64,000 nt of DNA, taken from contig CP181398.1 in the NCBI GenBank assembly GCA_047946875.1, positions 969,041-1,033,040 of the forward strand, written 5' to 3'. Positions 33,806 to 63,003 of this stretch are shown here, piece after piece. Under the pieces are notes generated by a model that saw only the letters and a list, made by a program, of their open reading frames with translations, searched no databases and was not told where the DNA came from. The DNA comes from Candidatus Kerfeldbacteria bacterium. GTDB lineage: Bacteria > Patescibacteriota > Patescibacteriia > UBA10025 > JAHIVO01. Made by a program: the position numbers and the translations under genes. The number at the start of each line of letters is the position of its first letter. Position 1 is the stretch's first letter.

Positions 33806-35953
33806 TTATAAGTTTTCTTGATACCATGCTTCATATTCCCCTTGCGTCCAATCAGTTCCAACTGGAGAATATGCGGCTGGAGGATCACATGGATCCGGTC
33901 CACCAAGAAAAAGAGACGCAACAAGATAGGTAAGGTCCGCAACCGACACTCGTGTATCCAAATCAACATTTGCAGCTGCATAAGGGTAAGGCGCTATTCC
34001 TCCTGTAAATAAATACGAAACAAGGAACGTAACATCAGCAATATTAATACTCCCACTATTATCTACATCACCGCACATGATGTTATTATTGACGATCATG
34101 TTGGTAAAAATAAAACTGGAATTATTAGGCGCGCCGTAAGGAGCACCTGCATTATCATATACGCGTGCCTGTACAAATTCCAAACCATTCAAGACCTCGC
34201 GAGAATCAAAAACTCCCTCATAGGGTACGATAGCATCCGTACCAAGAGAAACTAATCCGCTACGAAAAAAATCCACTTTTTCTATTCCTGAAAGATCGGA
34301 TGCAGAAACAACCAGTGGAACCAAACCAGATACTTCTGTTCCCATTTTCGGAGATGTGAATAACGCTGTTGGTGGATCAAAATCTGTTTTACCGATAATA
34401 ACAGTAACATTCATATACGAATTTTCCGGATTTCCGGAATCTTCAAAAACTTCATCAACTTGAACGACAGTACCGGTAACCGGATCAGTAAATGAAAACA
34501 GTTCCGGTAAAATCTCCGGGCACCCAGAATCACCAGGAGTTATATCCAAAAGCCAGGAACGTGCCGGATCAACCAACCCGTACTCACGACCATTAACATG
34601 TAACAAAGCACCGCCAAGTATGGAACAACTCAAATCACTGTCCGTGCCGTACGGCTGGCGAAATTCGAGATACAAATAATCTCCGGGAGTCCGTGGAATC
34701 TTTAATGCTTTAATTTCCTGTGCGCCGCCTGTCACCGGTGTTTCAATCGGCTTTAAAGTGAAAGTGCCGCTCTCTGATGCTTCATGAATTTGATAGGTAT
34801 CATTAAACCAACCCATATATTCTTTGTGTACTGAATTGAAATGGCCCGAAAATCCTCTTCCCATAATATCGTACCAATCTCCATATTCTGAAAGTTCACA
34901 ATTTTCATAATCAAGTGTAATAATTTCTTCACCACAATCAATAAAACTTGCATGACGAGCTCCGAGCCCATGTCCAAGCTCATGGCCCGGAACGTAATAA
35001 CTCGTATACGTCATATACACCGAACGGACCACCTGTATTGAAAATGGCGTAACACCGTCATCTGTAGGATGAGGGGATTTACCGATAGTTGATAAACCCG
35101 CCCACGCACAACTGGATTCTACGGGCACAACAATCATTACGTGGTCATACTGCGTAAAATCAACATCAGGATCCACTAAATTTATTGTTGCATCATATAT
35201 CTCATTAAAACCACATGTATGATTAATCGGAAGTGTGGACCATCCTTCCGCCAGACCCAAGAGTGTCTCACCACTCAGATTCATCTGATTGAATGACACT
35301 TCCTGATAATATTCATTTATTGATCCAAAAACTACCTGATCTATCTCTGCGTTCGTAATGCTTGGCAGTTCTGTATCTTGAAAATTCGCCGGTATTACCA
35401 AAACCCGCTGTTCACCAAGCACGGAATCTCGTTCACCGGATTTTAATTGAGCTATGCCGGTTTTACTCTCTTCATTTTCATCTATAATATTCTCAATCAA
35501 AAGCGTGTTGTTCCCCACATCATACCCAGTAACCAACATAGTGGTTCCGGATATTAATCCTGGTTCTGATTCACTTGTAAAAAAGAGTTGATATTTAACG
35601 CCGTCATCAGTATGTAAGAAAAATTCACTCCACGCTGTATTCTTATCAAAATCATCATAAGCAACTTCCTGTAATATTCCTTGTAATGTGATAATACTAC
35701 CACTACATTCTTCCATATCTACAGTTTTGTATGACTGGTCAATTATATCTAAACGTATATTGCTGCTAGCCCACTGATCCGTATTTACAGAAGGACACCT
35801 GCTGATTTCTTGATTCACGTGATCAATCCGACTGCTGAACATTCCAATAATTATTCCCGCCGCCAAACACAAAGATGTAGCCATCATAACTGCAATAATA
35901 ATTTTTTCTTCAATGGAAACTTTAGTTTTTACCTGCATTTGGATTAATTCCAT
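33806..35953 (-). CDS. Membrane-anchored reprolysin-like zinc metalloprotease (metzincin) with a C-terminal dockerin-like domain; paralogue g of the array
   Basis: N-terminal signal anchor QVKTKVSIEEKIIIAVMMATSLCLAAGIIIGMF. Zinc motif VPGHELGHGLGARHAS (HExxHxxGxxH). C-terminal CGDVDNSGSINIADVTFLVSYLF...ANVDLDTRVSVADLTYLVASLF is a duplicated dockerin-type Ca-binding repeat. Confidence 0.75.
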   Translation of the reverse strand: MELIQMQVKTKVSIEEKIIIAVMMATSLCLAAGIIIGMFSSRIDHVNQEISRCPSVNTDQWASSNIRLDIIDQSYKTVDMEECSGSIITLQGILQEVAYDDFDKNTAWSEFFLHTDDGVKYQLFFTSESEPGLISGTTMLVTGYDVGNNTLLIENIIDENEESKTGIAQLKSGERDSVLGEQRVLVIPANFQDTELPSITNAEIDQVVFGSINEYYQEVSFNQMNLSGETLLGLAEGWSTLPINHTCGFNEIYDATINLVDPDVDFTQYDHVMIVVPVESSCAWAGLSTIGKSPHPTDDGVTPFSIQVVRSVYMTYTSYYVPGHELGHGLGARHASFIDCGEEIITLDYENCELSEYGDWYDIMGRGFSGHFNSVHKEYMGWFNDTYQIHEASESGTFTLKPIETPVTGGAQEIKALKIPRTPGDYLYLEFRQPYGTDSDLSCSILGGALLHVNGREYGLVDPARSWLLDITPGDSGCPEILPELFSFTDPVTGTVVQVDEVFEDSGNPENSYMNVTVIIGKTDFDPPTALFTSPKMGTEVSGLVPLVVSASDLSGIEKVDFFRSGLVSLGTDAIVPYEGVFDSREVLNGLEFVQARVYDNAGAPYGAPNNSSFIFTNMIVNNNIMCGDVDNSGSINIADVTFLVSYLFTGGIAPYPYAAANVDLDTRVSVADLTYLVASLFLGGPDPCDPPAAYSPVGTDWTQGEYEAWYQENL

Positions 35954-36011
35954 AAATTTTTATCATCATACAAATAAAATTCTGCTTAATATCAATCTAC
36001 AGACTATTTTA

Positions 36012-38339
36012 TTATCTATACACTGGTCTTGGACAACATGGATGACCATCATTCGCAGGATTATCACAATTAACAGCACATTCACAAGAACGATTTACAG
36101 TATCACATTGATAATCACTAGGACAGCCACAATCAGTACAATCTGTTTCAGTTAGTTCACCGTCAATACATATCTTCCCAGTATCACCCGGTATATTACA
36201 TTCTCCTGGTAAAACACCATCTTCACAAATTTGTTCACAATAACCTTCATCAGTACATACATCTCCCGCGTCTACACAGAGTCCTTCATGATCTCCACAG
36301 GCAAAACAATGAGCCCAAGAATCAAAACCACACGTACGATCACCACAGCTACTTACAGCTGGCACACTTTCACAATAAGCATCAGCTGTACCGGCACCAA
36401 CGCAAGTATCTACGGTACACCAATCATCATCAGCACAATCTTTATTGACTTTACAAAGAAATTCTACTTCTACGGTCAGTTTTCTTTCTTCCATTGGTAC
36501 ACTATCATCGGAAACAGATAGAGGTGTAATTACTACGCCTGTTTCTAAATCGGTCCATGAGTTATTAAGTTGAAGGGCTACATTTTTACTTGCACCATGA
36601 TACCAACCTCCACAACCACCATAAGGAGGATCGCAAAGATCAAGAAGAAATGATTTATGGCTATATGGATAATCAATTCCCATTGAACGTTCTGTGGTAT
36701 GAATAAGTGCACCTGTAAGAAGATTAGAACTAGTAACTGAGGTTTCATCAAAACCAATTGGCTGGCGATACTCAACATATATATAATGATTATCCCCACG
36801 GGGTATTTTTAGTGCTTTGAGTTTTAATCTGTCAGCAATCTCAATTGGATATAGTTCATATGTTCCACTATTAGTAATAGTCTGAATTTCAATAACGTTC
36901 ATCCAGCCCGTTGCATCTTTATGAAGCGCGTTGTAATGAGACATTGTGACATAACCCATTGCATCGTGGAGATCTAAGGCTTCGTCAATACCACCAGCAA
37001 AAACACATTCACTTAATGGCGTTGTAAATGTATTACAGCGAAGAACCGCTGCATGTTTATTACCAAGATTGTGTCCAAGTTCATGACCTAAATAATGAGC
37101 ACTTTTTCTAAAATCATAATCATAACCAACCGCACCTTCTGCAACAGGAAAATCAAGCGCCCTAACTGTTACACGGCCTATTTGATACTCATCACCAGGC
37201 TCTGTACCAGGTATAGTAATAGCATCTTGATCAACTGACCCAATACTTGCCATTCCAGCCCAAGTACATGAATCTCCATTACTCTTTCGCCATGGTGCAA
37301 TAATTACCAAATGATCATATTCCGTAAAGTCAATACTATCATCAGCATCATAGGCTTCTTGCATGGACTGCTCATAAAAAGATATATAAACTTCACATGA
37401 TACATCCAAATCAATCTTGTACCTAGAATTTGGATTTGTGGGATAAATATCAGCTGAGGCTGTAGGGTTTGCTATTCCAGCAAAGTGCAGTTGATCATAT
37501 GAGTTTTCTACATAGTAATCATTAATATTGTCCATTACTTTTCCAATAGTTTCATGTTCAGGGCTTGTTTCAGAGGTATTAGCAAAATCAACTTTCAAGA
37601 TTATTGTTTTACGCTCACCAGTAACTGACTTGTCGGATTTCTCTAATGTTACCCTATAACCTGAGAGGTTCTCTGAAGACTTTTCAGCTAGGTTATTTGC
37701 TCCGTCAAATAATAGCTTGTCATCCAATACATAACCAACAATTTGAGCGATGGTTCTTGAGGTTGTAATATACTTTGGTGATACTGATGGAAAGAGGCTT
37801 ATTGAACTGTCATCATCTGTAACAAAGGTATATGAGTCTTTACTGATGCCTTCTTCAAAATTATCAAAAGTATTTATATAAACCTTTCCGTCATACGTAG
37901 TTAATATTTCTGAACAATTAGTAGCATAGGTATTTACTTTATCAAGCTCTGCTTTGGTAAATACTGATTCTAAAGCTGCAGATGAATCCATCTGCATTAG
38001 ATCTGATAAAAGCTGTTTTCTGATAATAATAAGGGATTGGATTGTACTGACATTCTTCCCTGCTGCCAAGGCTGCTCTGAGATCAGTATTTACTTTGTTC
38101 ATTGAGCTTATCATCTCCTTAATATCAGTACTGTCTACTACTGGTTTTTCTAATATCAATGGTTTTGACTCAGCACACGTTACTTTTACTATCCTTTGTT
38201 CAACAGTTGTAATTGGTGAACTAAAAAACCCTGCAATAATCCCTGTTGCCAAACACAAAGACGCTCCCATCATTACGGCAACAACAATTTTTTCTTCAAT
38301 AGAAACTTTGGTTTTTACCTGTTGTTGATCTAATTTCAT
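36012..38339 (-). CDS. Membrane-anchored reprolysin-like zinc metalloprotease with a C-terminal ~150-aa Cys-rich module; paralogue f
   Basis: Signal anchor QVKTKVSIEEKIVVAVMMGASLCLATGIIAGFF. Zinc motif YLGHELGHNLGNKHAAVLRCN (HExxHxxGxxH). The C-terminal module CADDDWCTVDTC...GDRTCGFDSWAHCFACGDHEGLC...PCCPRPVYR has about 30 Cys. Confidence 0.8.
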   Translation of the reverse strand: MKLDQQQVKTKVSIEEKIVVAVMMGASLCLATGIIAGFFSSPITTVEQRIVKVTCAESKPLILEKPVVDSTDIKEMISSMNKVNTDLRAALAAGKNVSTIQSLIIIRKQLLSDLMQMDSSAALESVFTKAELDKVNTYATNCSEILTTYDGKVYINTFDNFEEGISKDSYTFVTDDDSSISLFPSVSPKYITTSRTIAQIVGYVLDDKLLFDGANNLAEKSSENLSGYRVTLEKSDKSVTGERKTIILKVDFANTSETSPEHETIGKVMDNINDYYVENSYDQLHFAGIANPTASADIYPTNPNSRYKIDLDVSCEVYISFYEQSMQEAYDADDSIDFTEYDHLVIIAPWRKSNGDSCTWAGMASIGSVDQDAITIPGTEPGDEYQIGRVTVRALDFPVAEGAVGYDYDFRKSAHYLGHELGHNLGNKHAAVLRCNTFTTPLSECVFAGGIDEALDLHDAMGYVTMSHYNALHKDATGWMNVIEIQTITNSGTYELYPIEIADRLKLKALKIPRGDNHYIYVEYRQPIGFDETSVTSSNLLTGALIHTTERSMGIDYPYSHKSFLLDLCDPPYGGCGGWYHGASKNVALQLNNSWTDLETGVVITPLSVSDDSVPMEERKLTVEVEFLCKVNKDCADDDWCTVDTCVGAGTADAYCESVPAVSSCGDRTCGFDSWAHCFACGDHEGLCVDAGDVCTDEGYCEQICEDGVLPGECNIPGDTGKICIDGELTETDCTDCGCPSDYQCDTVNRSCECAVNCDNPANDGHPCCPRPVYR
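37815..38150. repeat. About 330-bp near-identical direct repeat (copy 1) shared with 47395..47730
   Basis: Compared by eye, the stretch from ggtatatgagtctttactgatgcc through tggtttttctaatatcaa matches the second copy with only 1-3 mismatches. It encodes the identical ~100-aa N-proximal segment (MISSMNKVNTDLRAALAAGKNVSTIQSLIIIRKQLLSDLMQMDSSAALESVFTKAELDKVNTYATNCSEILTTYDGKVYINTFDNF) of paralogues f and c. Confidence 0.7.
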
Positions 38340-38366
38340 ATTTCTTTTCTTTTCTTCATATGAAAA

Positions 38367-41300
38367 TTAATCCATTCCTCCAGCTGGATCTGTACCTGCA
38401 CAAGCTGGATCAGGTTTACGTGGATTATAGTTACTACACTCTGGATCATCTGGTTGTGGTGTTGGTGCTTCACACTGACCACTAGCACATGAGCCCATGC
38501 ACTGTAGTGGTACTCCAACACATTCATCCCATCCCGGATGATATTGATCACTACAATAATATTCCATATATTGAGTTGAATTTACACATGTTATTTCATT
38601 ATATTCATCTTTATCATAACATTTACCAAATTCTGTAGGATTAAATCCTCCACAATCTCCTCCATCACACCAATTATCAGAATCATAACAAACACAGTTA
38701 GAACCAGCACAACCAATTGCACATGTCCAAAGTTCTGCTGGTTCACAGCCACTTGTACCACATTGATAGCCTTGGACATTACCTGCATTACATGTTTGAG
38801 AATGGTAACCAGCTAAATCAGTACAAGATGTTACAACGCTTTGTAAATCTGGGTCACGATAATCAATCCAACCGTCACAATCATCATCAAGATAGTTTAG
38901 GCACACTTCGTTATCGCTGCAATCCCAATCGTGATAAAAGTAAATATCATCATTATCGTTACCATTCACCCCATATGCATTCCACACTATTCGATTTTCA
39001 GAAATTGCCATATATCCCAAAGATATATATGGATCTGATGATCCACTCATTAATTCAGTAAGTCCTGCTGCTGTATTATCAAGATCATATAAATACAGTG
39101 GATTATCATCATTAAAATAAGAAGCTTTTAACAATATAATCTTTGAACCATCAATATCTAGTGCTTCTATATGGCCCTCGGGAATGCTATAAATCAATTG
39201 TTGGCCTGCTGTAGGGTTTGACAAATCATATAGATAAAGTTTGTTATAATTCTTCCAAATGATAGTATTGCCAGAAATTCTAGCAAACGCACCATCAGAT
39301 TCGGCTATCAGCTGCTTACCGGCAGCGGGATTGGATAGGTCAAACATATATATATACGGATTTTCGTCTCCCCAATCAACCCACACTATCTTACCTTCAT
39401 CGATATCTAATAAGTGTCTCTCTGCTTCAGTTCCAGGGAGTTGTTGGACTCCAGCAGCGGGATTGGATAGGTCGTAGTGGTAAATAAAATAGACTTCCCA
39501 CAAACCAGTTTCCGACCAAATGATATTATCACCTGATATTTCAAGTACATCAAGCTCATACAAATTAGAATCAGCTATCTGTTGAACACCAGCTCCTGGA
39601 TTAGATAGATTATAATAGTAAATAAAACCAGCTGTAGTCCACACTACATTATCACCCGAAATAGATAAATTAGTAACATACCAATCGGCGGATAAAGCAA
39701 TACTTTGAATTCCCTCTTGCGGATTATCAAAATCAAAGGTGTCTATATAGGTATCATCATAATTATATCTAGCCCACACTGCACGACTACCCGATATATC
39801 TGGCTTGATGTTATGTTCCCAGTCCCCATCAACTGTGTAGCCATATCCATGCGTTAATTTTGCTGGACCACGAGATGCAAGCTGTATCGGCGTATCATAT
39901 ACAAATCCCCCTATTGCAGAATTGACTGATAAACGAATTGTGTAGTCACCAATTGGCACATTCAATATATTCCATTCACCAAGAATGCCATCTATTACTG
40001 GTGTTGTGACTAGACCTCCTATTGCTACCCAATCATCTTTGCCTGTTTCGCTATATAAAAGCTGATATGATGTTTGAGGAAAACCAACTGTGGCAGCATG
40101 TGCTGTTCCCGTGATAGTTATTGTATCCAGCAGCAATTCCTGCGGATACAGATATGTATACAAAGCTGGACTAGTAATTTCAGCAACCTCAGTGACAGGG
40201 AATGGATATAATCCATTTACTTCAGCAGCGGCCTGAATTTCTGCAAAATGTGGTGTGCCATTAATAATAATTCCGTCATCATCGTCAAGTACTATAAGGT
40301 CAAATAATGCATAAGGGATATTAGGTGAATTTGCAAGTACGGTCGACATTACCAAACTCTCTGCTATATCTACACCAAGCATTTGACGTAACTGCCATGC
40401 AAAACCAACCCATGCCTGTCCCAGCCTATGAACTTCATCAACTCCGCCCTGGGGGTATTGATAATCATTTTCAGCAGTACGAATGTAAGTATCTTCTCCG
40501 AAAAAACCTTCACCAATAATCGGCTGATCAGTTGCATAAGTAGCAAAAATATCTGCCCACCCTTCTGATAAACCAATTCCTGCGTTAGTATCTGGTATGC
40601 CACCGGCCATATGGTCAATAAAATGACCGTATTCATGATATAGTATTGTATCATACGCACTATATATACAGCTTTGACCTAGCCATTGATCATATCCTGC
40701 GCGATAAAAACCTATTTCCTGGTCATCGTCGTTGTATGCAAAATATGCATTACATAATGTACTGCAACAACCAGACGTTCTATTTACTAACGCCCGTAAA
40801 GGAATATCTATTCCCGTCAATGGCACTGGCAAATGTTCCTGTGCCCAATCATGTATATATGTCGTGTGGTAATAGGCATTCACCTGCGACGTTAAAGACT
40901 CGTTATTACCATCTGGATTAAATGGTAGGTCAATTGATACACCGGGATCAGCCGACTCATCAAATTCAATGTTTTCTGCGCCACTCAAGGAATACACAGC
41001 AGCCCATTGACCAAATAATTGTGCCTGTACGTTTGTTGGACTCGTTTCAGTCGGGAATATAAAGCTACCATCGTCATTGGTAAACTGCTCACTCCCTGAT
41101 GTTGTTGAAACGGTTAAATCATCGAGTTCAAAATTCGTCAGATCGTCTAACGTCACTAATGGATCAAATAAAACGCCGCGGCCATGAACAGAACCCTGGA
41201 TAGTGGCGTACAGACGCTTATCACGGACTCGGGCAGCGCCAGTGTGTTTATCTACGAATACTGTTTCAACTGCTTCTTCATACTGTACTTTTTGCAACTT

Positions 41301-42224
41301 TCTCCAACGTCCATCCATATATTTAATTATTTCTTCTGAACCCTTGGGGATCAATCGACTGGCCTCCAAATTTAGGGATGTCGCAGCAGCTCGCTGAATA
41401 GATATATCATCCCGTTCCACTGCTTTCGGTAAATCAAGATCTGGGTATACTTGAGCGCTTGCATATACAACCGTGCTCTTATCTTTCCATTGTTTTATCG
41501 CAAAGTGTACATATGAACCCACCACATCAAGCCCATCGTGCATCTGAATAAAATCTACGAATACAGTTGATGGTTTATTTACCTCGCCCGGTATTGTAAC
41601 AATATAAGTATGCTTCATTTCCCCCGCTTTGATTCCACCGATGAAGTCAGTATTACTTACTAAATAATTCTCAAGTTCATCAACAACCGCAGCTTCTGTT
41701 TGAGGGTTCCCGCGCAGATCAACAGATCCAATGCTTTTTCTAACCGCATGCTGAGGCATTTCACTTTGTTGAATACCAAGATTCCATTCTTTAATTACAT
41801 TCGATAGTCTAGAATCTGGTAACCGTGTAGTCATTGTAGCAACAATTCCAAATGAAATTCCTGCTATTTCTTCATATGCCTCCAACTTTGGAACGGCTGA
41901 ATACGGAATCTGTGCAATAAATGCACCAGCGTCATAAACGCGTCTAATCATTCCGCCTTCGCGTTCAATAATATTCTTCACAGAATCTATGTCTTCATAT
42001 GCAGTCTCAGATACGATAACAAGTGCTTCCTGGTTAGCTTCTTCCTGTATGGTTGGTAATACGGCAGGTTGGGTAACAGTCGTGGTATCTTTCGATGCCA
42101 GCGTTAACAGGAATATTCCAAAAGCAACTCCAACACAGGACACCGCGATCATACCTACTCCAAGCGTTATCTTGGTCGCGTTGATTTGTCGTACCTTTAC
42201 TACGGTGTCTTGTTGGTTTTCCAT
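38367..42224 (-). CDS. Membrane-anchored thermolysin-like (HExxH...ExxxD) zinc metalloprotease with PD40/TolB-like beta-propeller repeats and a C-terminal Cys-rich region; paralogue e
   Basis: N-terminus MENQQDTVVKVRQINATKITLGVGMIAVSCVGVAFGIFLL. ILYHEYGHFIDHMAGG plus GLSEGWADIFA 20 aa downstream (compare thermolysin HELTH...NEAISDIFG). Five to six ~48-aa repeats of ISGDNIIW...IYxYDLSNPAAGxQQL. C-terminal ~200 aa with more than 30 Cys. Confidence 0.75.
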   Translation of the reverse strand: MENQQDTVVKVRQINATKITLGVGMIAVSCVGVAFGIFLLTLASKDTTTVTQPAVLPTIQEEANQEALVIVSETAYEDIDSVKNIIEREGGMIRRVYDAGAFIAQIPYSAVPKLEAYEEIAGISFGIVATMTTRLPDSRLSNVIKEWNLGIQQSEMPQHAVRKSIGSVDLRGNPQTEAAVVDELENYLVSNTDFIGGIKAGEMKHTYIVTIPGEVNKPSTVFVDFIQMHDGLDVVGSYVHFAIKQWKDKSTVVYASAQVYPDLDLPKAVERDDISIQRAAATSLNLEASRLIPKGSEEIIKYMDGRWRKLQKVQYEEAVETVFVDKHTGAARVRDKRLYATIQGSVHGRGVLFDPLVTLDDLTNFELDDLTVSTTSGSEQFTNDDGSFIFPTETSPTNVQAQLFGQWAAVYSLSGAENIEFDESADPGVSIDLPFNPDGNNESLTSQVNAYYHTTYIHDWAQEHLPVPLTGIDIPLRALVNRTSGCCSTLCNAYFAYNDDDQEIGFYRAGYDQWLGQSCIYSAYDTILYHEYGHFIDHMAGGIPDTNAGIGLSEGWADIFATYATDQPIIGEGFFGEDTYIRTAENDYQYPQGGVDEVHRLGQAWVGFAWQLRQMLGVDIAESLVMSTVLANSPNIPYALFDLIVLDDDDGIIINGTPHFAEIQAAAEVNGLYPFPVTEVAEITSPALYTYLYPQELLLDTITITGTAHAATVGFPQTSYQLLYSETGKDDWVAIGGLVTTPVIDGILGEWNILNVPIGDYTIRLSVNSAIGGFVYDTPIQLASRGPAKLTHGYGYTVDGDWEHNIKPDISGSRAVWARYNYDDTYIDTFDFDNPQEGIQSIALSADWYVTNLSISGDNVVWTTAGFIYYYNLSNPGAGVQQIADSNLYELDVLEISGDNIIWSETGLWEVYFIYHYDLSNPAAGVQQLPGTEAERHLLDIDEGKIVWVDWGDENPYIYMFDLSNPAAGKQLIAESDGAFARISGNTIIWKNYNKLYLYDLSNPTAGQQLIYSIPEGHIEALDIDGSKIILLKASYFNDDNPLYLYDLDNTAAGLTELMSGSSDPYISLGYMAISENRIVWNAYGVNGNDNDDIYFYHDWDCSDNEVCLNYLDDDCDGWIDYRDPDLQSVVTSCTDLAGYHSQTCNAGNVQGYQCGTSGCEPAELWTCAIGCAGSNCVCYDSDNWCDGGDCGGFNPTEFGKCYDKDEYNEITCVNSTQYMEYYCSDQYHPGWDECVGVPLQCMGSCASGQCEAPTPQPDDPECSNYNPRKPDPACAGTDPAGGMD

Positions 42225-42271
42225 ATATTTATTATTGGATAAATTAGATATTTATTTAGTAAGTATATGTA

Positions 42272-45200
42272 TTATCTATACACTGGCGTTGGACAACATG
42301 AATGATCATCATTTTCAGGCCTGCTACAATCAACATTACACTCACAAGTACGACTTACAGTATCACATTGATAACCACTTCTGCAGTCACAATCCATACA
42401 ATCTGTTTCAGTTAGTTCACCATCAATACATATTTTCCCGGTATCACCTGGTATATTACATTCTCCTGGTAAAACACCGCCCTCACAAACTTGTTCACAA
42501 TATCCTTCATCAGTACAAACATCTCCGGCTTCCACACATAGTCCTTCATTGTCTCCACAAGCAAAACAATGTGCCCATGAATCAAACCCACACGTACGAT
42601 CACCACAACTGCTTACAGCTGGAGTACTTTCACAATAAGCATCAGCCGTTCCTGTATCAACGCAAGTATCTACTGTGCAAGGATCATCATCAGCACAAGT
42701 TCTATTTTCTATACACGTAACACACTCGTTAATTGCTGTATTACAAATATAATCACTCTCACATCCACACTTGATACAGTCATTTGCTAAATAACGACCA
42801 TCACAATACTGACGGCTAGCATTGCAACTATAAGGATCCGTACCATCATCACAACCATCTCCAACATCAACATCAATTGTAGTTATTCCATAATTAGGTC
42901 CCGGACCTGCTATTGCAGGAATTGTTACATTAATATATTGCTCACCAACTATCGTCAGAAAAACTTCATGTTCATAATAGGGGTATCCAAATACTTCCAG
43001 CTTATGGACTCCTTCGGTAATAGAGATACGAACGGATGATGTTCCTTCAGAACTCTTTATATCTCTTTGAGCTTGAGCTTGAGGTTGATCATCTATATAT
43101 ACATACACTCTTCCATCTAGGCCTTCCGGATTGTTAATATTAATTTCAAGTATATCAGTATCCCCCCAGCCAATTTGGGCCATAGTATGCCAATCAAACA
43201 TAGGTTCTCCGAGATCATCACAGAAATGACCACAATCACTCCAAGCGCCATTCTTCATGAGACTATCAATTTGGTATGGACTGCAAATAATATCATTTTC
43301 ATTAGTCTTGGCTGAATTTCCTCCTGCAGCAATGACCCGATTAGCAGCTGTAGCACGTGCGTTGCATCCAATACTGTCTGTACGCCCATATTCATCCTCG
43401 GCAAAAAATACATGTGCTGATTCGTGAGCAGCAACACTTGAATCTCGGCGAAGATCACGCGCTCCCTCAAGAAAAATACCTATCTCATTATCACCAAACA
43501 CAGTGCCACCTGAACCGGAGTCTAAACGATAAATAGCGGAGCCAACTAACCTATAGTAACTATTACTTAGCGAATCTACGACTATACTCCCTGAGTATAA
43601 GGCATCTGCACTTTCAATATTATCACCAAACGTTGTTCCTCCTGTGCCAGAATCAAAGCGATAATCGTAAAACATATTAAACCCCGAAACATACACTTTA
43701 TCATGCACCGTATCAATAGCAATATCTTGAGGAATACTAATTCCTATGGTGTTCCAATTATCACCAAACACAGTGCCACCTGAACCGGAGTCAAAAAGTA
43801 CAACACGACCATTCATTTCATCAGCTACATAAACCTTATTACCCACACTATCAATGGCAATGCCTAATGGATTCCAAAAACGATTAGTTCCGCCCCATCC
43901 ATAGGATCCAAATGTTTCCCAATTATCACCAAATACCGTCCCGCCAGAACCCGAGTCAAAACGGGCAACACGATTATTAGATGTATCAACAACATAGACT
44001 TTATTATTAATATCATCAATAGCAATTCCTTTTGGACCATTAAATTGACCAACGCCGGATCCAACAGTTCCAAATTGTTCAATATTAAAACCAAGTGTAG
44101 TCCCGCCTGAGCCGGAGTCAAAACGTACAACACGGTTATTAGACGTATCAGCTACATAGACTTTGTTATTACCCGAATCAACTGAAACGCCCCACGGTGA
44201 TGAAAGTCCTAATCCCAAAGTCATACTCTCTTGATTCTGCCCGAATGTTGTCCCTCCTGAGCCGGAGTCAAAACGGGCAACACGATTATTGAATTTATCA
44301 ACTGTATATAATTTATTATTAATCTGATCAATCGCAAGGCCAGTTGGTTCATCCAAATTATTCATTCCATAAGACCAATTAAGAATAGCAAAGTGCCCCA
44401 GATATGCTTGAGGCCAATAATTATCGCCATTCACCGCTGGACGTAATTCATCCTTAACTACAAAAATAACAAAAGCTGTTTGTGCATTAAAATAATCAGC
44501 CATTTCTTGAGAGTATTTATCTACCTCGGATTGAAAACTATTTACAGTATCAAAACAAATATCAAAGTCAGTAGTACCAAATACACACACATTACGATTC
44601 CGCATTAATTGGTGCACCCAATACTTATTCTCAACATTTGTTGAAGGTTCATATTCAGTTTGTTGATCTGAATCAGCAGGATTTTCATAAAGTACATGAA
44701 ATGAAAGATTTTTACTCTCTGGAGCAGCATCGGCTAATCCATAAAGACCGTATAAAGTATTTAACGAGTGATCAATATATTGATCGTATGTCCAATTTTC
44801 ATCACCGGATCCACTGGCTGCACTCTCAACATAAATAAGATCAACGTAAATCAATCCGTGCATGCCACTTGCTCCCGGTGTAGAGCTTTTTTCTCCTCCG
44901 TCCATCTGTGATTCATAATAATCCTGGTGTATCTGAATTTCTCCTTGTCGCTCCTCTTTTGTTAGCGATGAATCATTATTAACATCTTCAATAATCATCT
45001 CTAATGCTTCTTCATCGGTTATTGTATCTTTTCCTAAATCTAAAACCTCTTTACGATCACTAACTACCACCTCACTATAAACTATTTTTTTATATGAATT
45101 GAGAAACTCCTGGGTTACAGCACTATACTCATCAAGTGAATCTTTGGCTAATATATCATTACTTGTGATAAGCTCTGTTACTAATGCGTTTTCACGAATC

Positions 45201-45598
45201 ACTTCATAATTATCCTCTGCTATCCGACCAATAAAAAGGTGCTCTGACTCAAGACTATTTAACTCCTGATTTTTTCTTTTGGATAAAATGAGAAATATTC
45301 TATCCCCTCTATTCTCAATTTCTTCTTTGAACGCAGCAATATCCGACTCCGGTTTATCTGAATTGACCACAAGAGCTGTTAAATCAAAATTCTCCACGAC
45401 AACCATGCGAAAATTTGGTCCTTCCTCAACAACTGGTAAAGGCTGTACAATAGGTGCTGGTTGTTCAGTTTTTGTCATAAGTGATCCAAGCACTCCAACA
45501 AAAGCCAACCCCACAAAAAACGCTGCTATCATCCCAACCGTAATTCCTACGGCTAGACGAGTTTCGGTAGCTACTTTTGTGACTTGTTTATTCTCCAT
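42272..45598 (-). CDS. Membrane-anchored HExxH metalloprotease-like protein with NHL beta-propeller repeats and a C-terminal Cys-rich module; paralogue d
   Basis: The ORF runs to 45643; the start was trimmed to the MENKQVTKV ATG (45596-45598) by analogy with the MENQ starts of the paralogues. TM LAVGITVGMIAAFFVGLAFVGVL. NHL repeats YVADTSNNRVVRFDSGSGGTT (about five copies). AAHESAHVF (HExxH). The C-terminal Cys module ends SCCPTPVYR. Confidence 0.7.
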   Translation of the reverse strand: MENKQVTKVATETRLAVGITVGMIAAFFVGLAFVGVLGSLMTKTEQPAPIVQPLPVVEEGPNFRMVVVENFDLTALVVNSDKPESDIAAFKEEIENRGDRIFLILSKRKNQELNSLESEHLFIGRIAEDNYEVIRENALVTELITSNDILAKDSLDEYSAVTQEFLNSYKKIVYSEVVVSDRKEVLDLGKDTITDEEALEMIIEDVNNDSSLTKEERQGEIQIHQDYYESQMDGGEKSSTPGASGMHGLIYVDLIYVESAASGSGDENWTYDQYIDHSLNTLYGLYGLADAAPESKNLSFHVLYENPADSDQQTEYEPSTNVENKYWVHQLMRNRNVCVFGTTDFDICFDTVNSFQSEVDKYSQEMADYFNAQTAFVIFVVKDELRPAVNGDNYWPQAYLGHFAILNWSYGMNNLDEPTGLAIDQINNKLYTVDKFNNRVARFDSGSGGTTFGQNQESMTLGLGLSSPWGVSVDSGNNKVYVADTSNNRVVRFDSGSGGTTLGFNIEQFGTVGSGVGQFNGPKGIAIDDINNKVYVVDTSNNRVARFDSGSGGTVFGDNWETFGSYGWGGTNRFWNPLGIAIDSVGNKVYVADEMNGRVVLFDSGSGGTVFGDNWNTIGISIPQDIAIDTVHDKVYVSGFNMFYDYRFDSGTGGTTFGDNIESADALYSGSIVVDSLSNSYYRLVGSAIYRLDSGSGGTVFGDNEIGIFLEGARDLRRDSSVAAHESAHVFFAEDEYGRTDSIGCNARATAANRVIAAGGNSAKTNENDIICSPYQIDSLMKNGAWSDCGHFCDDLGEPMFDWHTMAQIGWGDTDILEININNPEGLDGRVYVYIDDQPQAQAQRDIKSSEGTSSVRISITEGVHKLEVFGYPYYEHEVFLTIVGEQYINVTIPAIAGPGPNYGITTIDVDVGDGCDDGTDPYSCNASRQYCDGRYLANDCIKCGCESDYICNTAINECVTCIENRTCADDDPCTVDTCVDTGTADAYCESTPAVSSCGDRTCGFDSWAHCFACGDNEGLCVEAGDVCTDEGYCEQVCEGGVLPGECNIPGDTGKICIDGELTETDCMDCDCRSGYQCDTVSRTCECNVDCSRPENDDHSCCPTPVYR

Positions 45599-45669
45599 GT
45601 TTTTATCATTAAATGTATTAGATGATTTATTTTGTTGAGCCATATTTAATATATATTAATAAATATTTT

Positions 45670-47919
45670 TTAATAATACACGGGAGCTTCTGGTATACAA
45701 CATTTCCATTCAATATGAGAACAATAATATTTAACACCACTAGCATCATAAAGATCGTAATCATCACATTCATTTATAAATTTATTAATACACGTACCAC
45801 CCTCATCTTCGCATGTACTTGTGCTACATTGTCCGCTCATACAATAACTTCCTGCTTCGCACTCACCACAATCAAAACATCCATCAACACTTTGACCACA
45901 CACTTTATCACCGCACGAGTTTTGTATTAATTCATTAGAGCAATTCGCATCAGCAGTACCAACATCAGCACATATATCGGTCGTACACCTATCTCCATCG
46001 TCACATTCGCTGTTAGTACTGCAGAGATAAAGATATTCTATTTCAACTGTCAATTTTCGTTCTTCTGTGGGAACACTGTCATCAGAAACTGATAGTGGGC
46101 TAATTTTTACATTTGCCTCTATATCAGTCCATGAATTCCCGACTTGTAATGCTACATTCCTACTGGCGGCGTTAAACCAATTTCCACACTCGCCATATGG
46201 AGGTCCACAAAGATCAATTAAATATGATTTAGCACTATTTGGGAAATCTACTCCTGCTGAACGTTCTGTAGTATGAACAAGTGCACCTGTAATAAGATTA
46301 GACCAATTAACTGAAGTCTCATCATAGCCAATTGGCTGGCGGTACTCTACATATACATAATGATCATCTCCACGTGGTATTTTAAGAGCTTTTAACTTTG
46401 ATCTGTCTGCAATTTCAATCGGATACAACTCATATATTCCATTGGCATCAACTGTTTGAATTTCTGTGCCGTCAATAAACCATCCTGTTACATCTTTATG
46501 GAGAGCATTATAATGAGACATTGCTGTATTGCCCATAATTTCATGGCTATCGCGATATTCATCGCCACTATCAAAAACACATTCACTTAATGGTGTTGTA
46601 AAGGCGTTACACCGAAGAACCGCAGCATGACGATTGCCAAAATTATGCCCAAGTTCATGTCCGGAATTAATTGAAATTTGCCTAAAATATGAATCATAAT
46701 TTGGTACACCTTCATAGGCTGGATAATATCTAGATTGAAGTGTTACACGTCCTATTTCATATTCATCACCCGGGTTCGTACCTGGTATTGTCATTTCATC
46801 CTGATCAGCAGACCCAAGACTTGCATATGCAGCCCACCAACATGGACTACCATCACTCTCCTGCCAAGGTGCTACGACAACTACATGATCGTATTCCGTA
46901 AAATCAATGTCATCAGCATCATAGGCTTTTTGCATAGATTGTTCAAAAAATGTTTTTAAATATGTTTCATAATCACAAGTAGTATTGAAATCAACCTTAT
47001 ACCGTGAACTTGGATTGCTAGGATAAATATCAGCTGTTTCTCCAGGATTTACTACTCCTCTAAAGCTTAATTGGTTATATGAGTTTTCTAGATAGTAATC
47101 GTTTGTATTATCCATTACTTTTCCGATAGTTTCATGCTCTGGGCTTGTTTCAGATGTATTGGCAAAGTTAACCTTTAAGATTATTGTTTTACGTTCACCA
47201 AGATATGATGTATTAGATTTGTCTTGTGTCACTAAATATCCCGATATGCCATCAGCAGGATTTTCAATTAAATTCCGCGCCCCGTCTAATAATAACTTAT
47301 CATCAAGCACATATCCAATAATTTCAGCCGTGGTACTTGAAACTGTAATATCTTTTGGTGGTACGGATGGGAACAGATTTATTGAGTTATCATCATTTGT
47401 AATAAAGGTATATGAGTCTTTACTGATGCCTTCTCCAAAATTATCAAAAGTATTTATATAAACCTTTCCGTCATACGTAGTTAATATTTCTGAACAATTA
47501 GTAGCATAGGTATTTACTTTATCAAGCTCTGCTTTGGTAAATACTGATTCTAAAGCTGCAGATGAATCCATCTGCATTAGATCTGATAAAAGCTGTTTTC
47601 TGATAATAATAAGGGATTGGATTGTACTGACATTCTTCCCTGCTGCCAAGGCTGCTCTGAGATCAGTATTTACTTTGTTCATTGAGCTTATCATCTCCTT
47701 AATATCAGTACTGTCTGCTACTGGTTTTTCTAATATCAACGGCTTTGATTCAGTACACGTTACTTTTACTATCCTTCGTTCAATAGATGACGTTGGTGTA
47801 CTAAAAAATCCAACAACAATCCCTGTCGCCAAACACAAAGACGCTCCCATCATAACCGCAATAATGATTTTTTCTTCAATTGAAACTTTGGTTTTTATTT
47901 GTGGTTGATCTAATTTCAT
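45670..47919 (-). CDS. Membrane-anchored reprolysin-like zinc metalloprotease with a variant C-terminal Cys-rich module; paralogue c
   Basis: The start was trimmed to MKLDQPQIKTKVSIEEKI (47917-47919). Zinc motif SGHELGHNFGNRHAAVLRCN. The C-terminal Cys-rich module ends KCCIPEAPVYY. Confidence 0.8.
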   Translation of the reverse strand: MKLDQPQIKTKVSIEEKIIIAVMMGASLCLATGIVVGFFSTPTSSIERRIVKVTCTESKPLILEKPVADSTDIKEMISSMNKVNTDLRAALAAGKNVSTIQSLIIIRKQLLSDLMQMDSSAALESVFTKAELDKVNTYATNCSEILTTYDGKVYINTFDNFGEGISKDSYTFITNDDNSINLFPSVPPKDITVSSTTAEIIGYVLDDKLLLDGARNLIENPADGISGYLVTQDKSNTSYLGERKTIILKVNFANTSETSPEHETIGKVMDNTNDYYLENSYNQLSFRGVVNPGETADIYPSNPSSRYKVDFNTTCDYETYLKTFFEQSMQKAYDADDIDFTEYDHVVVVAPWQESDGSPCWWAAYASLGSADQDEMTIPGTNPGDEYEIGRVTLQSRYYPAYEGVPNYDSYFRQISINSGHELGHNFGNRHAAVLRCNAFTTPLSECVFDSGDEYRDSHEIMGNTAMSHYNALHKDVTGWFIDGTEIQTVDANGIYELYPIEIADRSKLKALKIPRGDDHYVYVEYRQPIGYDETSVNWSNLITGALVHTTERSAGVDFPNSAKSYLIDLCGPPYGECGNWFNAASRNVALQVGNSWTDIEANVKISPLSVSDDSVPTEERKLTVEIEYLYLCSTNSECDDGDRCTTDICADVGTADANCSNELIQNSCGDKVCGQSVDGCFDCGECEAGSYCMSGQCSTSTCEDEGGTCINKFINECDDYDLYDASGVKYYCSHIEWKCCIPEAPVYY
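47395..47730. repeat. About 330-bp near-identical direct repeat (copy 2) shared with 37815..38150
   Basis: See copy 1. The duplicated antisense ORFs 37954..38328 and 47534..47908 (both MVNTDSKAADESICIRSDKSCFLIIIRDW...) are a by-product of this identity. Confidence 0.7.
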
Positions 47920-47990
47920 AGATTTATTATTATACGATTTTTTTAGTTGAATGGGCATTAGTACAAAATATTATGAACGGATAGTATATT

Positions 47991-50900
47991 TTATCTATGC
48001 ACTGGCGTTGAACAACATGCATGATTTGGATAGTTTGCACAATTAACAGAACATTCGCAATAATAATCTCCTTGGCCATTATCCCAACAGGAATACCCGC
48101 CACTACATCCGCATACTCGGCAATCCGTATCAATTAGTTGGCCATCTTCGCATAACAGAGCGCCATTACCCACTCCATTACATGCTCCGGCGGGAGTACT
48201 TCCACAATCTGAATAACAATAGTTATCAAGACATGTATTACCTCCTACACACGATCCATTATAATCTCCACATACGGAACAATGTTTCCATGTATCCCAA
48301 CCGCATTCATAATCACCACATTCACTTGCTACAGGAGCGTTTGTGCAATATGAATCAACCCCAGTTCCAACACAAATATCATTCGTGCATAAATTACTAT
48401 CATAACAATCTTCATTAACACTACACGTTATAACCGTAAGCGTCATTGATACTGTGTTGAACTTCTCTGGATTTGCTACTTCCCTCACACCAAAGGTGAG
48501 ATCATAACTGCCAACCTGTTCTATAGTAGGTGTCCACATAAATACTCCATTGGCAGAAAGAAGGTTAGCTCCAGCTGGCAGATTGTCCACATAATATTCT
48601 ATCGCATCACCATCAAAATCCATGCCTTTCAAAAGAAGATTAAAGGAAGAACCAGCAATTACTTCTCGATCATCGATAGCACGGATAACTGGATCGTTAT
48701 TGATATATGTCCAATAAATATCCCAATTAGACCCGCCAGCTCGATTATCCATCCAAACAACTTTATCTCCTGATATTGCTGGATTTGTTTGTCTGTCTGT
48801 ATCAAAAGTCAACTGTACTCCACTTAAAGTGGGATTAGCTAAATCATAGAAATAAATATCATCATTGCCACTTCGTGTGTCCATAAATACAATATAATCT
48901 CCATCAATCGAAGGTTGTTGTTGATCTGCTGGATGATCAAATACTCTTTCCATTGTCTGACTAGTAATATTATAGATAAACAGATTATAATTATATGTAT
49001 CCCATACTATATTACCATCCGAAAAATCAAGTTCTCTAAGCCAAGTAGCCTTGCTAACAGCCAACTGTGCCCCAAGCTCTGGCTTATCAAGTTGGTAATA
49101 ATAAATATCATCATCATCTAGAAAATCACGCGGCGTAGAAAAAAACACAATTGTATCACCATCCATACTTGCATCATATGACTGTATTGAAGAATCATCA
49201 GTTAACTGTTGTATACCTAAACCCGGATTAATAATATCAAACAAATATATTTCTTTCGGACCTGTCCCCTCATCATGAAATACGATTTTGTTATTCGCCA
49301 TATCCATTTTAGAATTACAACACCCAATAAGTCCGGTAGCAGCTAACTGCTCTCCTGCAACCGAATTATTAAGATCATAGTAATATATTTCTTTTTTAGT
49401 ATAATCAAGCCAGACGATATAATTTTGATCTACAATAGGATACCTCTGAAAATCTGAATCAAATGTAATTCTTTGTTCTCCGGCCCCAGGATTATTCAAA
49501 TCATAATAATAAATATCATAACCATTACGCTCATCTTGCCAGACGATTATATCACCACTAATTTGTGGTCTATTTTGACTACCTAAATCCGTCGTAAGCT
49601 GAATAGGCGGAATTATACCAATGCTAACTGTTTGTGTATCAATAAAATAACCCACCGATGTGCTCACTATAAGCTTCAGAGTATAAACACCTAGTTGTAA
49701 ATTATGTACATCCCACTCACCAATCACTCCGTTATCAACATCTGTAAAACCCTCTATAATCTGTGTCCAAGTATCTGGATTTGTACCTTCCCCATAATAT
49801 AATTTATAATCATCTAGCTCTGCCACAATTCCCAGTGCATTTGCATTACCCATAACTGAAACAAAGTTCTCGCCAGCCAAGAAAAGTTCTGACAAATATA
49901 TTGTCTCAACTGGTTGTGTAATCAACGCTACAGTATCAAGATGGAATGGATATAAATTATGATTTTCAGCTGCATTAATGATAGCGCCTAGATGTGGTGT
50001 GCCATTTCCCAAGTTAGCATCATTATCATCAATAATAAGTAAATCAAGCACAGCACTAGGAATATCAGATGAATTAGCTAATATAGTTGGTAATACAATA
50101 TCTTCGGCTGTTTCCGCGCCAAGTGCTCGCCTAAGATCCCAAGCTAAACCAACCCATGCTTGTCCTAGATCATGCTCATCAACACCCTCGGGATTTTCAG
50201 GATACTGGTAATCATTATCCGCTGTTCGTATATGTTCACCCATTGCCCAGTAATTTTCTCCAATTAATGGTTGGCCAGTAGCAAATGTTGAGAAAATATC
50301 AGCCCATCCTTCAGATAAACCTTTATTAGTAATGCCCCCAAGTTTATGATCCACAAAATGACCATACTCATGATAAATTATTGTGTCATAAGCAGGATTT
50401 AAACAAATCCCGTCGCCAGAGAGATAAAATTCAATATGGAAAAAATAGCGATCATATGATGCATTACATATATAATCTGGATCAGGGTTATTTACATGCA
50501 ACCGAACTGGATAATCAAGCCCAAAAAAAATTTCATTAATAACAGACACTTGGCTGCCCAATTCTGACTCTATCCAGTCATGAATAAAAGAACCATGATA
50601 GTAAGCATTTACCTGAACTGTAGAATGTTCATCATTACCCGTGGGATTCAAATGTATTATCTCATCAATACTTTCTGTCGCATTGTCATTTTCATAATAT
50701 ACCCATGGTTCGCTCCAAGTTCCACTAAAAAGATGTTCTCCTCTCATAGCAGCTGTAATACCAATTGGTGTAGTGCTAACATCAAGTGAGAAATCGCCTG
50801 ATTCATCAGTGTAAGCTACATCATTATCATCAGACCAAACTTTCATATTTTTTAATGGTGCTTCGGTCAAACTATCTCCTGTTGTCCTTGGATCAAATTC

Positions 50901-51989: not shown

Positions 51990-52044
51990 ATATTTATTAT
52001 TAGACATATTAGATATTTATTTAGTAAATATGTGAAATTTATTT

Positions 52045-54399: not shown

Positions 54400-54541
54400 A
54401 AGCCTATATTTCTATATATTTAAAATATTAAATTTAATATTAAAAAGCGGAGGAAATTCAAATAATATATTTCACCCCCACCCAACTATTAATTACCAAA
54501 CGATCTATTATTATTTTTTTGTTGAGTTCATTTCTACCCTA

Positions 54542-54570
54542 ACTATGGCACAAAAAATCCCTTTAGTCAA
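54542..54570 (-). promoter_or_regulatory. Copy 2 of the recurrent promoter cassette: TTGACT - 17 nt - TGcCATAGT (minus strand), 140 nt upstream of the first metalloprotease gene
   Basis: The plus strand reads tttctaccctaactatggcacaaaaaatccctttagtcaa. The reverse complement gives TTGACTaaagggattttttgtgcCATAGTtagggtagaaa. It is the only promoter-like element between the subtilase stop (54737) and the 54399 start. Confidence 0.55.
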
Positions 54571-54736
54571 TCTCTTTGAAATTAATAAACTAATAAATTA
54601 AAATATTATGAATTGCCAATTAATATTATAAAAACTATTTACCTATATACCAAAACACCACGGATATATATCCGTGGTGAAATGGTTACCCCTAAATTTA
54701 ATGATTTAAGGAATCATATTATATTCTATGAAAAGA

Positions 54737-62073: not shown

Positions 62074-62137
62074 ATTTTCAAAGTACATTTTAATAAAAGG
62101 AGAAAAAATTAATCTTCTCCTTGCGAAAAATGTGCTT
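62074..62137. repeat. Intergenic repeat element copy 1 (hairpin AAGGAGAA...TTCTCCTT), also present at 62941..63003
   Basis: ttttcaaagtacattttaataaaaggagaaaaaattaatcttctccttgcgaaaaatgtgctt compared with ttttcaaagtacattttaataaaaggagaagggtttaatcttctccttacaaaaaatgtgctt. Identity is about 90%. Confidence 0.6.
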
Positions 62138-62922: not shown

Positions 62923-62940
62923 CTTAATTCTCCCATTTTA

Positions 62941-63003
62941 TTTTCAAAGTACATTTTAATAAAAGGAGAAGGGTTTAATCTTCTCCTTACAAAAAATGTG
63001 CTT
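62941..63003. repeat. Intergenic repeat element copy 2
   Basis: See copy 1. It overlaps the stop codon of the 63002.. gene and lies ~20 nt upstream of the methyltransferase start. Confidence 0.6.

Follow-up and report, generated by a model that had tools for sequence, protein, structure and literature searches.

A 281-bp identical tract in two diverged surface-protease paralogues of a Candidatus Kerfeldbacteria gene array points to recent ectopic gene conversion

Bacterial paralogues are known to undergo ectopic gene conversion and concerted evolution, for example the tufA/tufB genes of Salmonella, the rRNA operons and the babA/babB genes of Helicobacter, and gene conversion between bacterial paralogues was reportedly reviewed by Santoyo and Romero in 2005. 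A second group of systems, cassette antigenic variation (Neisseria pilE/pilS, Borrelia vlsE, Anaplasma msp2, Mycoplasma genitalium mgpB/MgPar and Treponema tprK), combines one expression site with silent, promoterless partial cassettes and generates high-frequency variation within populations. In the lpl cluster of S. aureus, every ORF contains a central conserved region, and rearrangements of the cluster have been documented by many strains (Tsuru and Kobayashi 2008, PMC2568036). Our search of the literature found no description of such paralogue conversion in CPR bacteria. The process that we describe here is a known one with a textbook footprint, and the tract is a fresh instance of it, of descriptive value.

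The locus lies in a 64,000-nucleotide window (the whole stretch of DNA that was analysed) from an uncultivated Candidatus Kerfeldbacteria, a CPR bacterium with a genome of ~1.3 Mb (1.31-Mb assembly, locus tags ACNFW9_*). It is an array of eight genes, each of which is a complete ORF that has its start codon and encodes an N-terminal anchor; the genes, tract copies, modules and blocks given below by window position are on the minus strand. The array opens with z (54737..58132, 1131 aa), whose anchored product is an S8 subtilase that bears FG-GAP repeats. Next comes a (52045..54399, 784 aa, ACNFW9_04955), whose product is 75% identical to that of f and 62% to that of c at the amino acid level, and then b (47991..52007, 1338 aa), whose giant anchored product contains a He_PIG Ig domain and a diverged version of the Cys-rich module found in a, d and f. 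Gene c (45670..47958, 762-aa ORF, ACNFW9_04945) is paralogous to f and a and has a Cys-rich tail of a different kind; the NCBI call for this gene starts at 47919 and gives 749 aa, as compared with the 762-aa ORF from 47958. Gene d (42272..45643, 1123 aa) codes for an NHL beta-propeller protein with a C-terminal Cys-rich module of the a/f type (42272-42715), and e (38367..42224, 1285 aa) for a giant anchored protein that is an old paralogue of b (35% amino acid identity). In the product of f (36012..38339, 775 aa, ACNFW9_04930), an N-terminal membrane anchor is followed by a helical insert, then by a metzincin-like domain and, at the C-terminus, by a Cys-rich module, while g (33806..35953, 715 aa) is a distant paralogue (~30% amino acid identity) that has the architecture usual for the family, with a Peptidase_M11-like domain, Big_7 and a dockerin. 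Like lpl, the array consists of surface or host-interaction genes that lie in tandem and in one orientation, and a highly similar intragenic stretch could be a recombination site; it differs from lpl in the heterogeneity of its genes (proteases, an NHL propeller and giant proteins). The original prediction treated the array as a repertoire of surface proteases, a label that is reasonable for a, c, f, g and z and does not apply to b, d and e, which are not proteases.

The products of a, c and f are predicted to be metzincin-like, membrane-anchored proteases. The zinc-binding motif HExxHxxGxxH is present (HELGHNLGNKH in f, HELGHNFGNRH in c), and H419, E420, H423, G426 and H429 are invariant in a, c, f, g and two distant homologues. 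In this motif and in their ~30% identity to g over ~600 residues, the three proteins resemble Peptidase M11 (gametolysin)-like/M12-like metzincins with Big_7 and dockerin. In contrast to these enzymes, they carry a ~150-aa module with 24 Cys in place of the Ig and dockerin tail, have a helical insert after the membrane anchor, and each fall below every Pfam threshold: Peptidase_M11 was matched by g (27.8 bits against a cut-off of 21), while a gave sub-threshold Reprolysin matches only and c and f gave none. Profile matches to solved structures were weak, nearly all of them to metzincins (best E = 7e-4). A profile search returned 6,937 relatives, and all of the top eight that were scanned carried Big_7, most of them together with M11 or Reprolysin-type matches. 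The AlphaFold model of f, built from a 6-sequence alignment, had a mean pLDDT of 36 and was unusable.

We examined the repeat shared by f and c by self-BLASTN of the window, sliding-window identity and an ungapped comparison at an offset of 9580. As originally predicted, identity was not uniform across the paralogues and the edges of the tract were sharp. The core of the tract is 281 bp long at 100% identity (37856..38136 in f, codons 69-161; 47436..47716 in c), and the two copies lie 9,580 bp apart in direct orientation and in the same reading frame. An extended tract of 336 bp (37824-38159 in f, 47404-47739 in c) contains two mismatches (99.4% identity), at 37855 and 38137 in f coordinates. 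The prediction of a ~330-bp near-identical repeat thus held, except for its count of one to three mismatches, as there are four between 37815 and 38150. Against its estimate of ~75-85% for the flanks, identity over the adjoining 150 bp was 72.7% towards the 3′ end of the gene and 85.3% towards the 5′ end; at this flank rate, the binomial probability of two or fewer mismatches in 336 bp is 5e-33. The remainder of the two genes is diverged by ~20-25%. The tract sits at the 5′ end of both genes, with ~12% of the gene homogenised, and codes for a segment, predicted to be helical, that lies after the membrane anchor and before the catalytic domain and is particular to a, c and f; gene g lacks most of this helical insert.

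Synonymous sites gave the same picture. Within the tract, f and c showed 0 synonymous differences over 59.7 sites, while pS was 0.56 (0.49-0.62) in the gene body (dS ~1.0) and 0.25 at the 5′ end. Since synonymous change is absent from the tract and extensive in the gene body, selection at the protein level cannot account for the identity. In a Sawyer-type test, 49 consecutive variable sites were concordant, as compared with a maximum of 12 in 10,000 permutations. Inside the tract, the site patterns grouped f with c at 45 sites, f with a at one and c with a at none; outside it, the patterns were near-equal in the middle of the gene and f=a was strongly dominant in the 3′ fifth, so that the grouping of copies in the tract conflicts with that in the rest of the gene. 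The third, more diverged copy that had been noted in a (53916..54196) is a homologous segment and merely that gene's counterpart region, outside the recent event: its identity to the tract is 82.6%, little higher than the DNA identity of the whole gene to f (79%) and to c (75%). That a is only 83% identical over this segment also indicates that the stretch is not universally constrained.

The same sequences were recovered from other assemblies. A second public assembly (GCA_008633345.1) was 100% identical to positions 26012-48339 of the window (22,328 bp), and database look-ups returned a third contig, of 181 kb, with the same c protein and three contigs with f, the a, c and f proteins being identical in contigs beyond the two assemblies. 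We found no structural variants of the array, the assemblies compared showing the same genes and proteins or identical sequence.

The zero synonymous differences, the sharp edges on both sides, the Sawyer-type run and the conflicting local grouping of f with c bear out the original prediction of recent gene conversion or recombination at this tract, and in our view it very probably reflects one recent ectopic gene conversion between the tandem, same-orientation protease paralogues c and f. With described cases of conversion between bacterial paralogues it has in common a short, fully identical patch that includes synonymous sites, diverged surroundings, boundaries on two sides and a shifted grouping of copies. 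It differs from tuf and the rRNA operons in extent, as those are near-identical over their whole length, while here ~12% of a gene was affected, once, in two of three or four paralogues. The event, intrachromosomal or between sister chromosomes, would have copied a patch of ~0.3 kb between c and f: a break or gap in one copy would have been repaired by homologous recombination with the other copy, 9.58 kb away, as the template, leaving a patch of at least 281 and at most ~336-373 bp with old divergence on both sides. We infer this repair mechanism, which would depend on RecA-type recombination; either copy may have been the donor, as no outgroup genome in the collections searched carries orthologues of c and f. 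No recombination genes were identified among the window ORFs scanned.

Other parts of the array point to exchanges older than that between f and c. Synonymous divergence differed by array segment (0.00, 0.25, 0.30, 0.35-0.45, 0.46-0.56 and 0.74), and one block of similarity spans a gene boundary. On the d/e side (42117..42715) this block, sharp at both edges, takes in d's Cys module, the spacer between the two genes and ~36 codons at the start of e; its a/b counterpart (51882..52497) takes in the corresponding module of a, the spacer and the 5′ end of b. The two blocks are 81.8% identical (85-94% in the spacer and 5′ part), and lpl likewise has a conserved unit that runs from the 3′ part of an ORF across the spacer into the 5′ part of the ORF that follows. 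The uneven divergence and the boundary-spanning block argue for older, repeated exchanges and against one duplication with uniform decay, suggesting that the eight-gene array is a mosaic in which the f-c event would be the youngest in a series of exchanges of differing age. Part of the unevenness in pS might come from constraints on codons or mRNA close to 5′ ends and not from older conversions. A single tandem duplication of a, b and c into d, e and f with uniform decay was ruled out by the range of segment pS (0.00-0.74), as was an exchange behind the N-terminal anchor common to g and a/c/f, where pS of 0.61-0.68 reflects protein-level constraint only. The conversion had been described as ongoing; the array holds one truly recent event, the f-c tract, and a range of older ones, from which we infer that the process may continue.

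The Cys-rich modules had been put forward as further evidence of recent conversion. Their high DNA similarity was confirmed: the module of f (36012..36455, 24 Cys in ~150 aa) has 85% DNA identity to that of d (85.2%, gap-free, between 36010-36455 and 42270-42715), and f and a are ~85-90% identical in this region. However, dS among the modules of a, d and f was 0.47-0.69, close to that of the a-f gene body (0.72), and dN was low (0.08-0.11), which does not fit a recent conversion. Judged from these substitution patterns, the similarity is mostly due to purifying selection and old module transfer. The domain shuffling that the original prediction envisaged is thus retained in an older form, in which the constrained module was acquired long ago by d, an otherwise unrelated NHL protein, and by the giant protein b, with no recent conversion of the modules.

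Apparent conversion at the f-c tract could also result from two successive unequal crossovers, or from recombination with DNA imported from a close relative, as in the model of Tsuru and Kobayashi. Direct repeats in a tandem array permit unequal crossing-over, and the cross-gene block (42117-42715 and 51882-52497) is the type of unit that the model predicts (PMC2568036). Nevertheless, we consider this origin clearly unlikely, as two crossovers within ~340 bp that keep gene order and copy number are less parsimonious than one short repair patch, and the assemblies compared contain no duplication or deletion variants. Imported DNA finds no related donor in the collections searched: a word-indexed protein search for orthologues returned only a, c, f and two distant M11 proteins, a scan of GTDB genomes gave one distant Omnitrophota match only, and neither protein patterns nor a wobble-degenerate DNA pattern from the tract had a match in JGI metagenomes.

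Phase variation of the surface proteins, which the original prediction had derived from the repeats, found no support. Under such a reading, the array would serve programmed phase or antigenic variation, with conversion or deletion between repeats switching the surface proteases on display. The proteins are surface-anchored, the array is a mosaic, the organism belongs to a group considered dependent on other cells, and a deletion of 9,580 bp by way of the 281-bp in-frame direct repeat could join the 5′ end of c to the body of f. Like the cassette systems, the locus would involve non-reciprocal recombination among paralogous surface-protein sequences, but its copies are all intact, full-length genes with their own start and anchor, with no silent or truncated cassettes. 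The array contains 0 inverted repeats, the 5′ portions of its genes lack homopolymer and simple-sequence tracts, and a scan of window ORFs turned up neither a recombinase nor a reverse transcriptase or mobile element. On this evidence, and with just one recent tract and no variant arrangement among the assemblies, which agree with one another, programmed variation is very unlikely. An invertible switch or simple-sequence phase variation was rejected on the same lack of a recombinase, inverted repeats and such tracts. A diversity-generating retroelement, in which a reverse transcriptase accompanies template and variable repeats that differ at adenines, was rejected as well, since the scanned ORFs include no reverse transcriptase and the repeat, which sits at the 5′ end of the genes, has only two mismatches (T/C and A/G).

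It is scarcely plausible that selection at the nucleotide level, on an embedded RNA, a regulatory site, an antisense gene or a conserved recombination site, has kept the f-c identity. The lpl cluster offers a precedent, as its conserved central region acts as a recombination site (PMC2568036), but there the conserved region is present in every ORF, while here the identical stretch occurs only in c and f, and b, d, e and z have unrelated sequence in this region. Identity falls to 83% in a and most of the segment is missing from g, which argues against nucleotide-level constraint. Antisense open frames do occur at homologous places in f (37954-38328), c (47534-47908) and a (54014-54601), although antisense open stretches of 100-148 codons are found in most long genes of the window, polA included, and an antisense gene was rejected since such frames are ordinary for this genome. 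An embedded RNA was likewise rejected, with no Rfam family at the tract (the only hit was a tRNA-Leu elsewhere) and an unremarkable fold z-score of -1.8. Promoter-like sites were not enriched, and the promoter and terminator scans, which showed no enrichment over shuffles, were uninformative.

Finally, an artefact of assembly or polishing, in which the paralogous segments were homogenised in silico, is highly improbable: the sequence is a metagenome-assembled genome and assemblers can pop small bubbles between near-identical repeats, which could lift ~99% identity to 100% within the tract, but such steps cannot create the contrast with flanks diverged by ~20%, whose reads would not cross-map, so that only a handful of differences could be hidden, and the edges of the tract lie within well-resolved unique sequence, the 1.31-Mb and 86-kb contigs of two assemblies agree base for base over 22 kb, and the 181-kb contig encodes the same c protein.

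For annotation, the 281-bp direct repeat is a place where misassembly or real deletions of 9.58 kb are likely, and trees of whole genes of the a/c/f family would mislead. We also give a small chance to a wider reading, in which the array is a recombination-driven diversification locus for the CPR cell-surface toolkit and identical intragenic tracts are repeatedly created and used. If this were true, such tracts would shuffle N-terminal, catalytic and Cys-rich modules and alter gene copy number in natural populations, such as by losing or duplicating 9.58 kb in frame between the two tract copies, and the cell would vary its interaction with other cells. The preferred reading, a recent conversion between c and f, suggests that paralogues in a small CPR genome undergo homologous recombination with one another, or did so until very recently, and that the large surface-protein genes of this lineage evolve as mosaics of exchangeable modules.

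The window forms part of a bacterial chromosome, encoding DNA polymerase I (14566-17340), the pol III delta subunit, D-Ala-D-Ala ligase and PRPP synthetase, with a G+C content of ~36% and nearly all genes on the minus strand. GC skew was negative throughout all 64 kb (−0.09 to −0.29) which, together with the strand of almost every gene, would fit a single replichore whose genes are strongly co-oriented with replication. The host belongs to the Candidate Phyla Radiation; the product of gene f was 100% identical to XOU94162.1 ('MAG: hypothetical protein ACNFW9_04930'), from a 1,309,938-bp contig of Candidatus Kerfeldbacteria bacterium. Outside the array described below, a 1,709-aa ORF (2980-8109) gave no Pfam match and had a local G+C of 0.40-0.45 versus ~0.34 nearby. 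Near the window end, two copies (90.6% identical) of a 64-nt element (62074-62137 and 62940-63003) each lay directly upstream of one of two adjacent minus-strand genes. The element contained a hairpin (AAGGAGAAG ... CTTCTCCTT), then a T-run and a TAAAAT-like box, had no Rfam match and may be a terminator-plus-promoter cassette.

The array at 33.8-58.2 kb comprises eight large minus-strand genes: z (54737-58132, an S8 subtilase with FG-GAP repeats), a (52045-54399), b (47991-52007, with a He_PIG Ig domain), c (45670-47958), d (42272-45643, an NHL propeller), e (38367-42224), f (36012-38339) and g (33806-35953, Peptidase_M11-like with Big_7 and dockerin domains). Spacers measured 26-58 bp, except for a 337-bp gap after z, and every gene product had a membrane anchor at its N-terminus, in which a hydrophobic helix follows a charged stretch. 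Self-BLASTN of the window showed that the protease genes f, c and a are paralogous over their whole length (f-a 79.2%, f-c 78.2% and c-a 74.7% identity). It also confirmed a near-identical f/c repeat within diverged flanks, as the original prediction had claimed: 37856-38136 in f and 47436-47716 in c were perfectly identical over 281 bp at a constant 9,580-bp offset, and only two mismatches occurred in 336 bp (37824-38159), while identity in the neighbouring 150 bp fell to 72.7% at one edge and 85.3% at the other. Were mismatches as frequent as in the flanks, two or fewer in 336 bp would have a probability of 5×10−33. The repeat is thus real, although the interval first proposed contained four mismatches rather than one to three, a trivial discrepancy. 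The proposed third copy in gene a (53916-54196) was more diverged, as stated (82.6% identical), and is merely the homologous part of that paralogue.

Synonymous differences were counted on a codon alignment by the Nei-Gojobori method. Within the tract (codons 68-161 of f), f and c differed at 0 of 59.7 synonymous sites, while pS was 0.25 in the first 67 codons and 0.56 over the gene body (bootstrap interval 0.49-0.62; dS ~1.0). Since selection at the protein level cannot remove synonymous differences, it is excluded as the cause of the identity. In a Sawyer-type test of the aligned a, c and f sequences, 49 consecutive variable sites had f=c, compared with a maximum of 12 in 10,000 permutations. 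Site patterns within the tract were f=c at 45 sites, f=a at one and c=a at none; outside it, the three were about equally frequent mid-gene and f=a dominated in the 3' fifth, so the grouping of the copies shifts along the gene. These results support the gene-conversion reading, and we consider it very probable that the f-c tract arose in this way.

Constraint on the nucleotide sequence itself could also keep the copies identical, but this is unlikely, as the segment is just 83% identical in paralogue a and mostly missing from g; an Rfam search of the tract gave no match and its predicted RNA fold was unremarkable (z = −1.8). An assembly artefact is likewise unlikely: the public assembly GCA_008633345.1 carries an 86-kb contig 100% identical to window 26012-48339, the same c protein occurs on a 181-kb contig and f on three contigs, and software could not make ~20% diverged sequence identical. 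Plus-strand antisense ORFs of 124-195 codons were present in f, c and a at mutually homologous positions (37954-38328, 47534-47908 and 54014-54601). An antisense gene in the tract was rejected, since these frames are no longer than those in other long window genes, most of which, polA included, have open antisense stretches of 100-148 codons; codon usage probably accounts for the frames.

Under gene conversion, one copy (c or f) would most likely have been repaired by homologous recombination with the other as template, on the same or the sister chromosome, leaving a short non-reciprocal patch; short-patch repair is inferred because the boundaries are two-sided and gene order is unchanged. The copies now form a 281-bp in-frame direct repeat, and a crossover between them is predicted to yield a 9,580-bp deletion or duplication together with a c/f chimera. 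The further proposal of phase variation was unsupported, as none of the defining features of known switching systems was found: the array had no silent or truncated cassettes, no inverted repeats and, in the 5' regions of its genes, no simple-sequence tracts; the window ORFs scanned revealed no recombinase, reverse transcriptase or mobile element; and the assemblies compared showed no variant arrangements.

The 3' ends showed the predicted DNA similarity (f-d 85.2% over 446 bp ungapped, d-a 81.8% over 616 bp), and the Cys-rich C-terminal module (24 Cys in ~150 aa) had protein identities of 81-86% among a, d and f, 44-48% for b and 36% for c. Recent conversion of these modules was not borne out, as their dS (0.47-0.69) is close to that of the a-f body (0.72); with dN at 0.08-0.11, purifying selection rather than recent exchange explains most of the DNA identity. 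The module is found on an NHL propeller (d) and a giant protein (b), and its homology in d begins abruptly at 42715, therefore indicating old domain shuffling. A cross-gene block of ~600 bp (42117-42715 in d/e, 51882-52497 in a/b), 82% identical with both edges sharp, runs from the Cys module of d or a past the stop codon and across the spacer between the genes into e or b, of which it takes in the first ~36 codons. Its spacer and 5' part were 85-94% identical; pS was 0.30 over the first 36 codons versus 0.74 for the b and e bodies (35% protein identity). With a and d, b and e, and c and f each offset by ~9.6-9.8 kb, the array may contain an old three-gene unit duplication. A single such duplication with uniform decay is incompatible with synonymous divergences of 0.00, 0.25, 0.30, 0.35-0.45, 0.56 and 0.74, and a mosaic built by repeated segment exchange fits better.

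By sequence, the eight anchors were of three types (a/c/f/g, b/e and d/z); that common to g and a/c/f had a pS of 0.61-0.68 and is therefore conserved only at the protein level. The N-terminal ~150 residues of d were 29% identical to those of subtilase z, so that d seems to be a chimeric gene that combines a z-type N-terminus with NHL repeats and an a-type Cys module. At the DNA level its NHL repeats (43487-44348) lie in tandem, one every ~132-165 nt; the 98% identity of two 40-nt stretches among them (43487-43526 and 43757-43796) hints at intragenic homogenization of the repeats.

The extended metzincin zinc motif HExxHxxGxxH was present in a, c and f (HELGHNLGNKH in f), which were ~30% identical to g across ~600 residues; g passed the Pfam M11 threshold. 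Against solved structures, the family profile gave weak matches, nearly all to metzincins and around the zinc motif. An exhaustive profile search recovered 6,937 relatives; all eight top relatives scanned carried Big_7 and most had M11 or Reprolysin-like matches, which is the architecture of g. In clustering at 50% identity, a, c and f formed their own cluster; among 5.8 billion proteins there was no other close member. The tract is located between the membrane anchor and the catalytic domain and encodes a predicted helical segment (low confidence, pLDDT 36) that is largely missing in g; most matches to other family members start no earlier than about profile position 70-105.

Exchange of the f-c kind is an ordinary phenomenon among bacterial paralogues, namely ectopic gene conversion or concerted evolution. 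The nearest documented parallel found is the lpl tandem paralogue cluster of Staphylococcus aureus, in which recombination at a conserved stretch inside the ORFs reassorts their halves but keeps together a unit that joins one ORF's 3' part, the spacer and the following ORF's 5' part (PMC2568036). Like lpl, the array has a cross-gene unit (d/e versus a/b); unlike lpl, it has no conserved stretch common to all ORFs. Our literature search found no paper on gene conversion in Kerfeldbacteria or Patescibacteria, and the f-c tract adds a new case of a known process, from a lineage that has been little studied.
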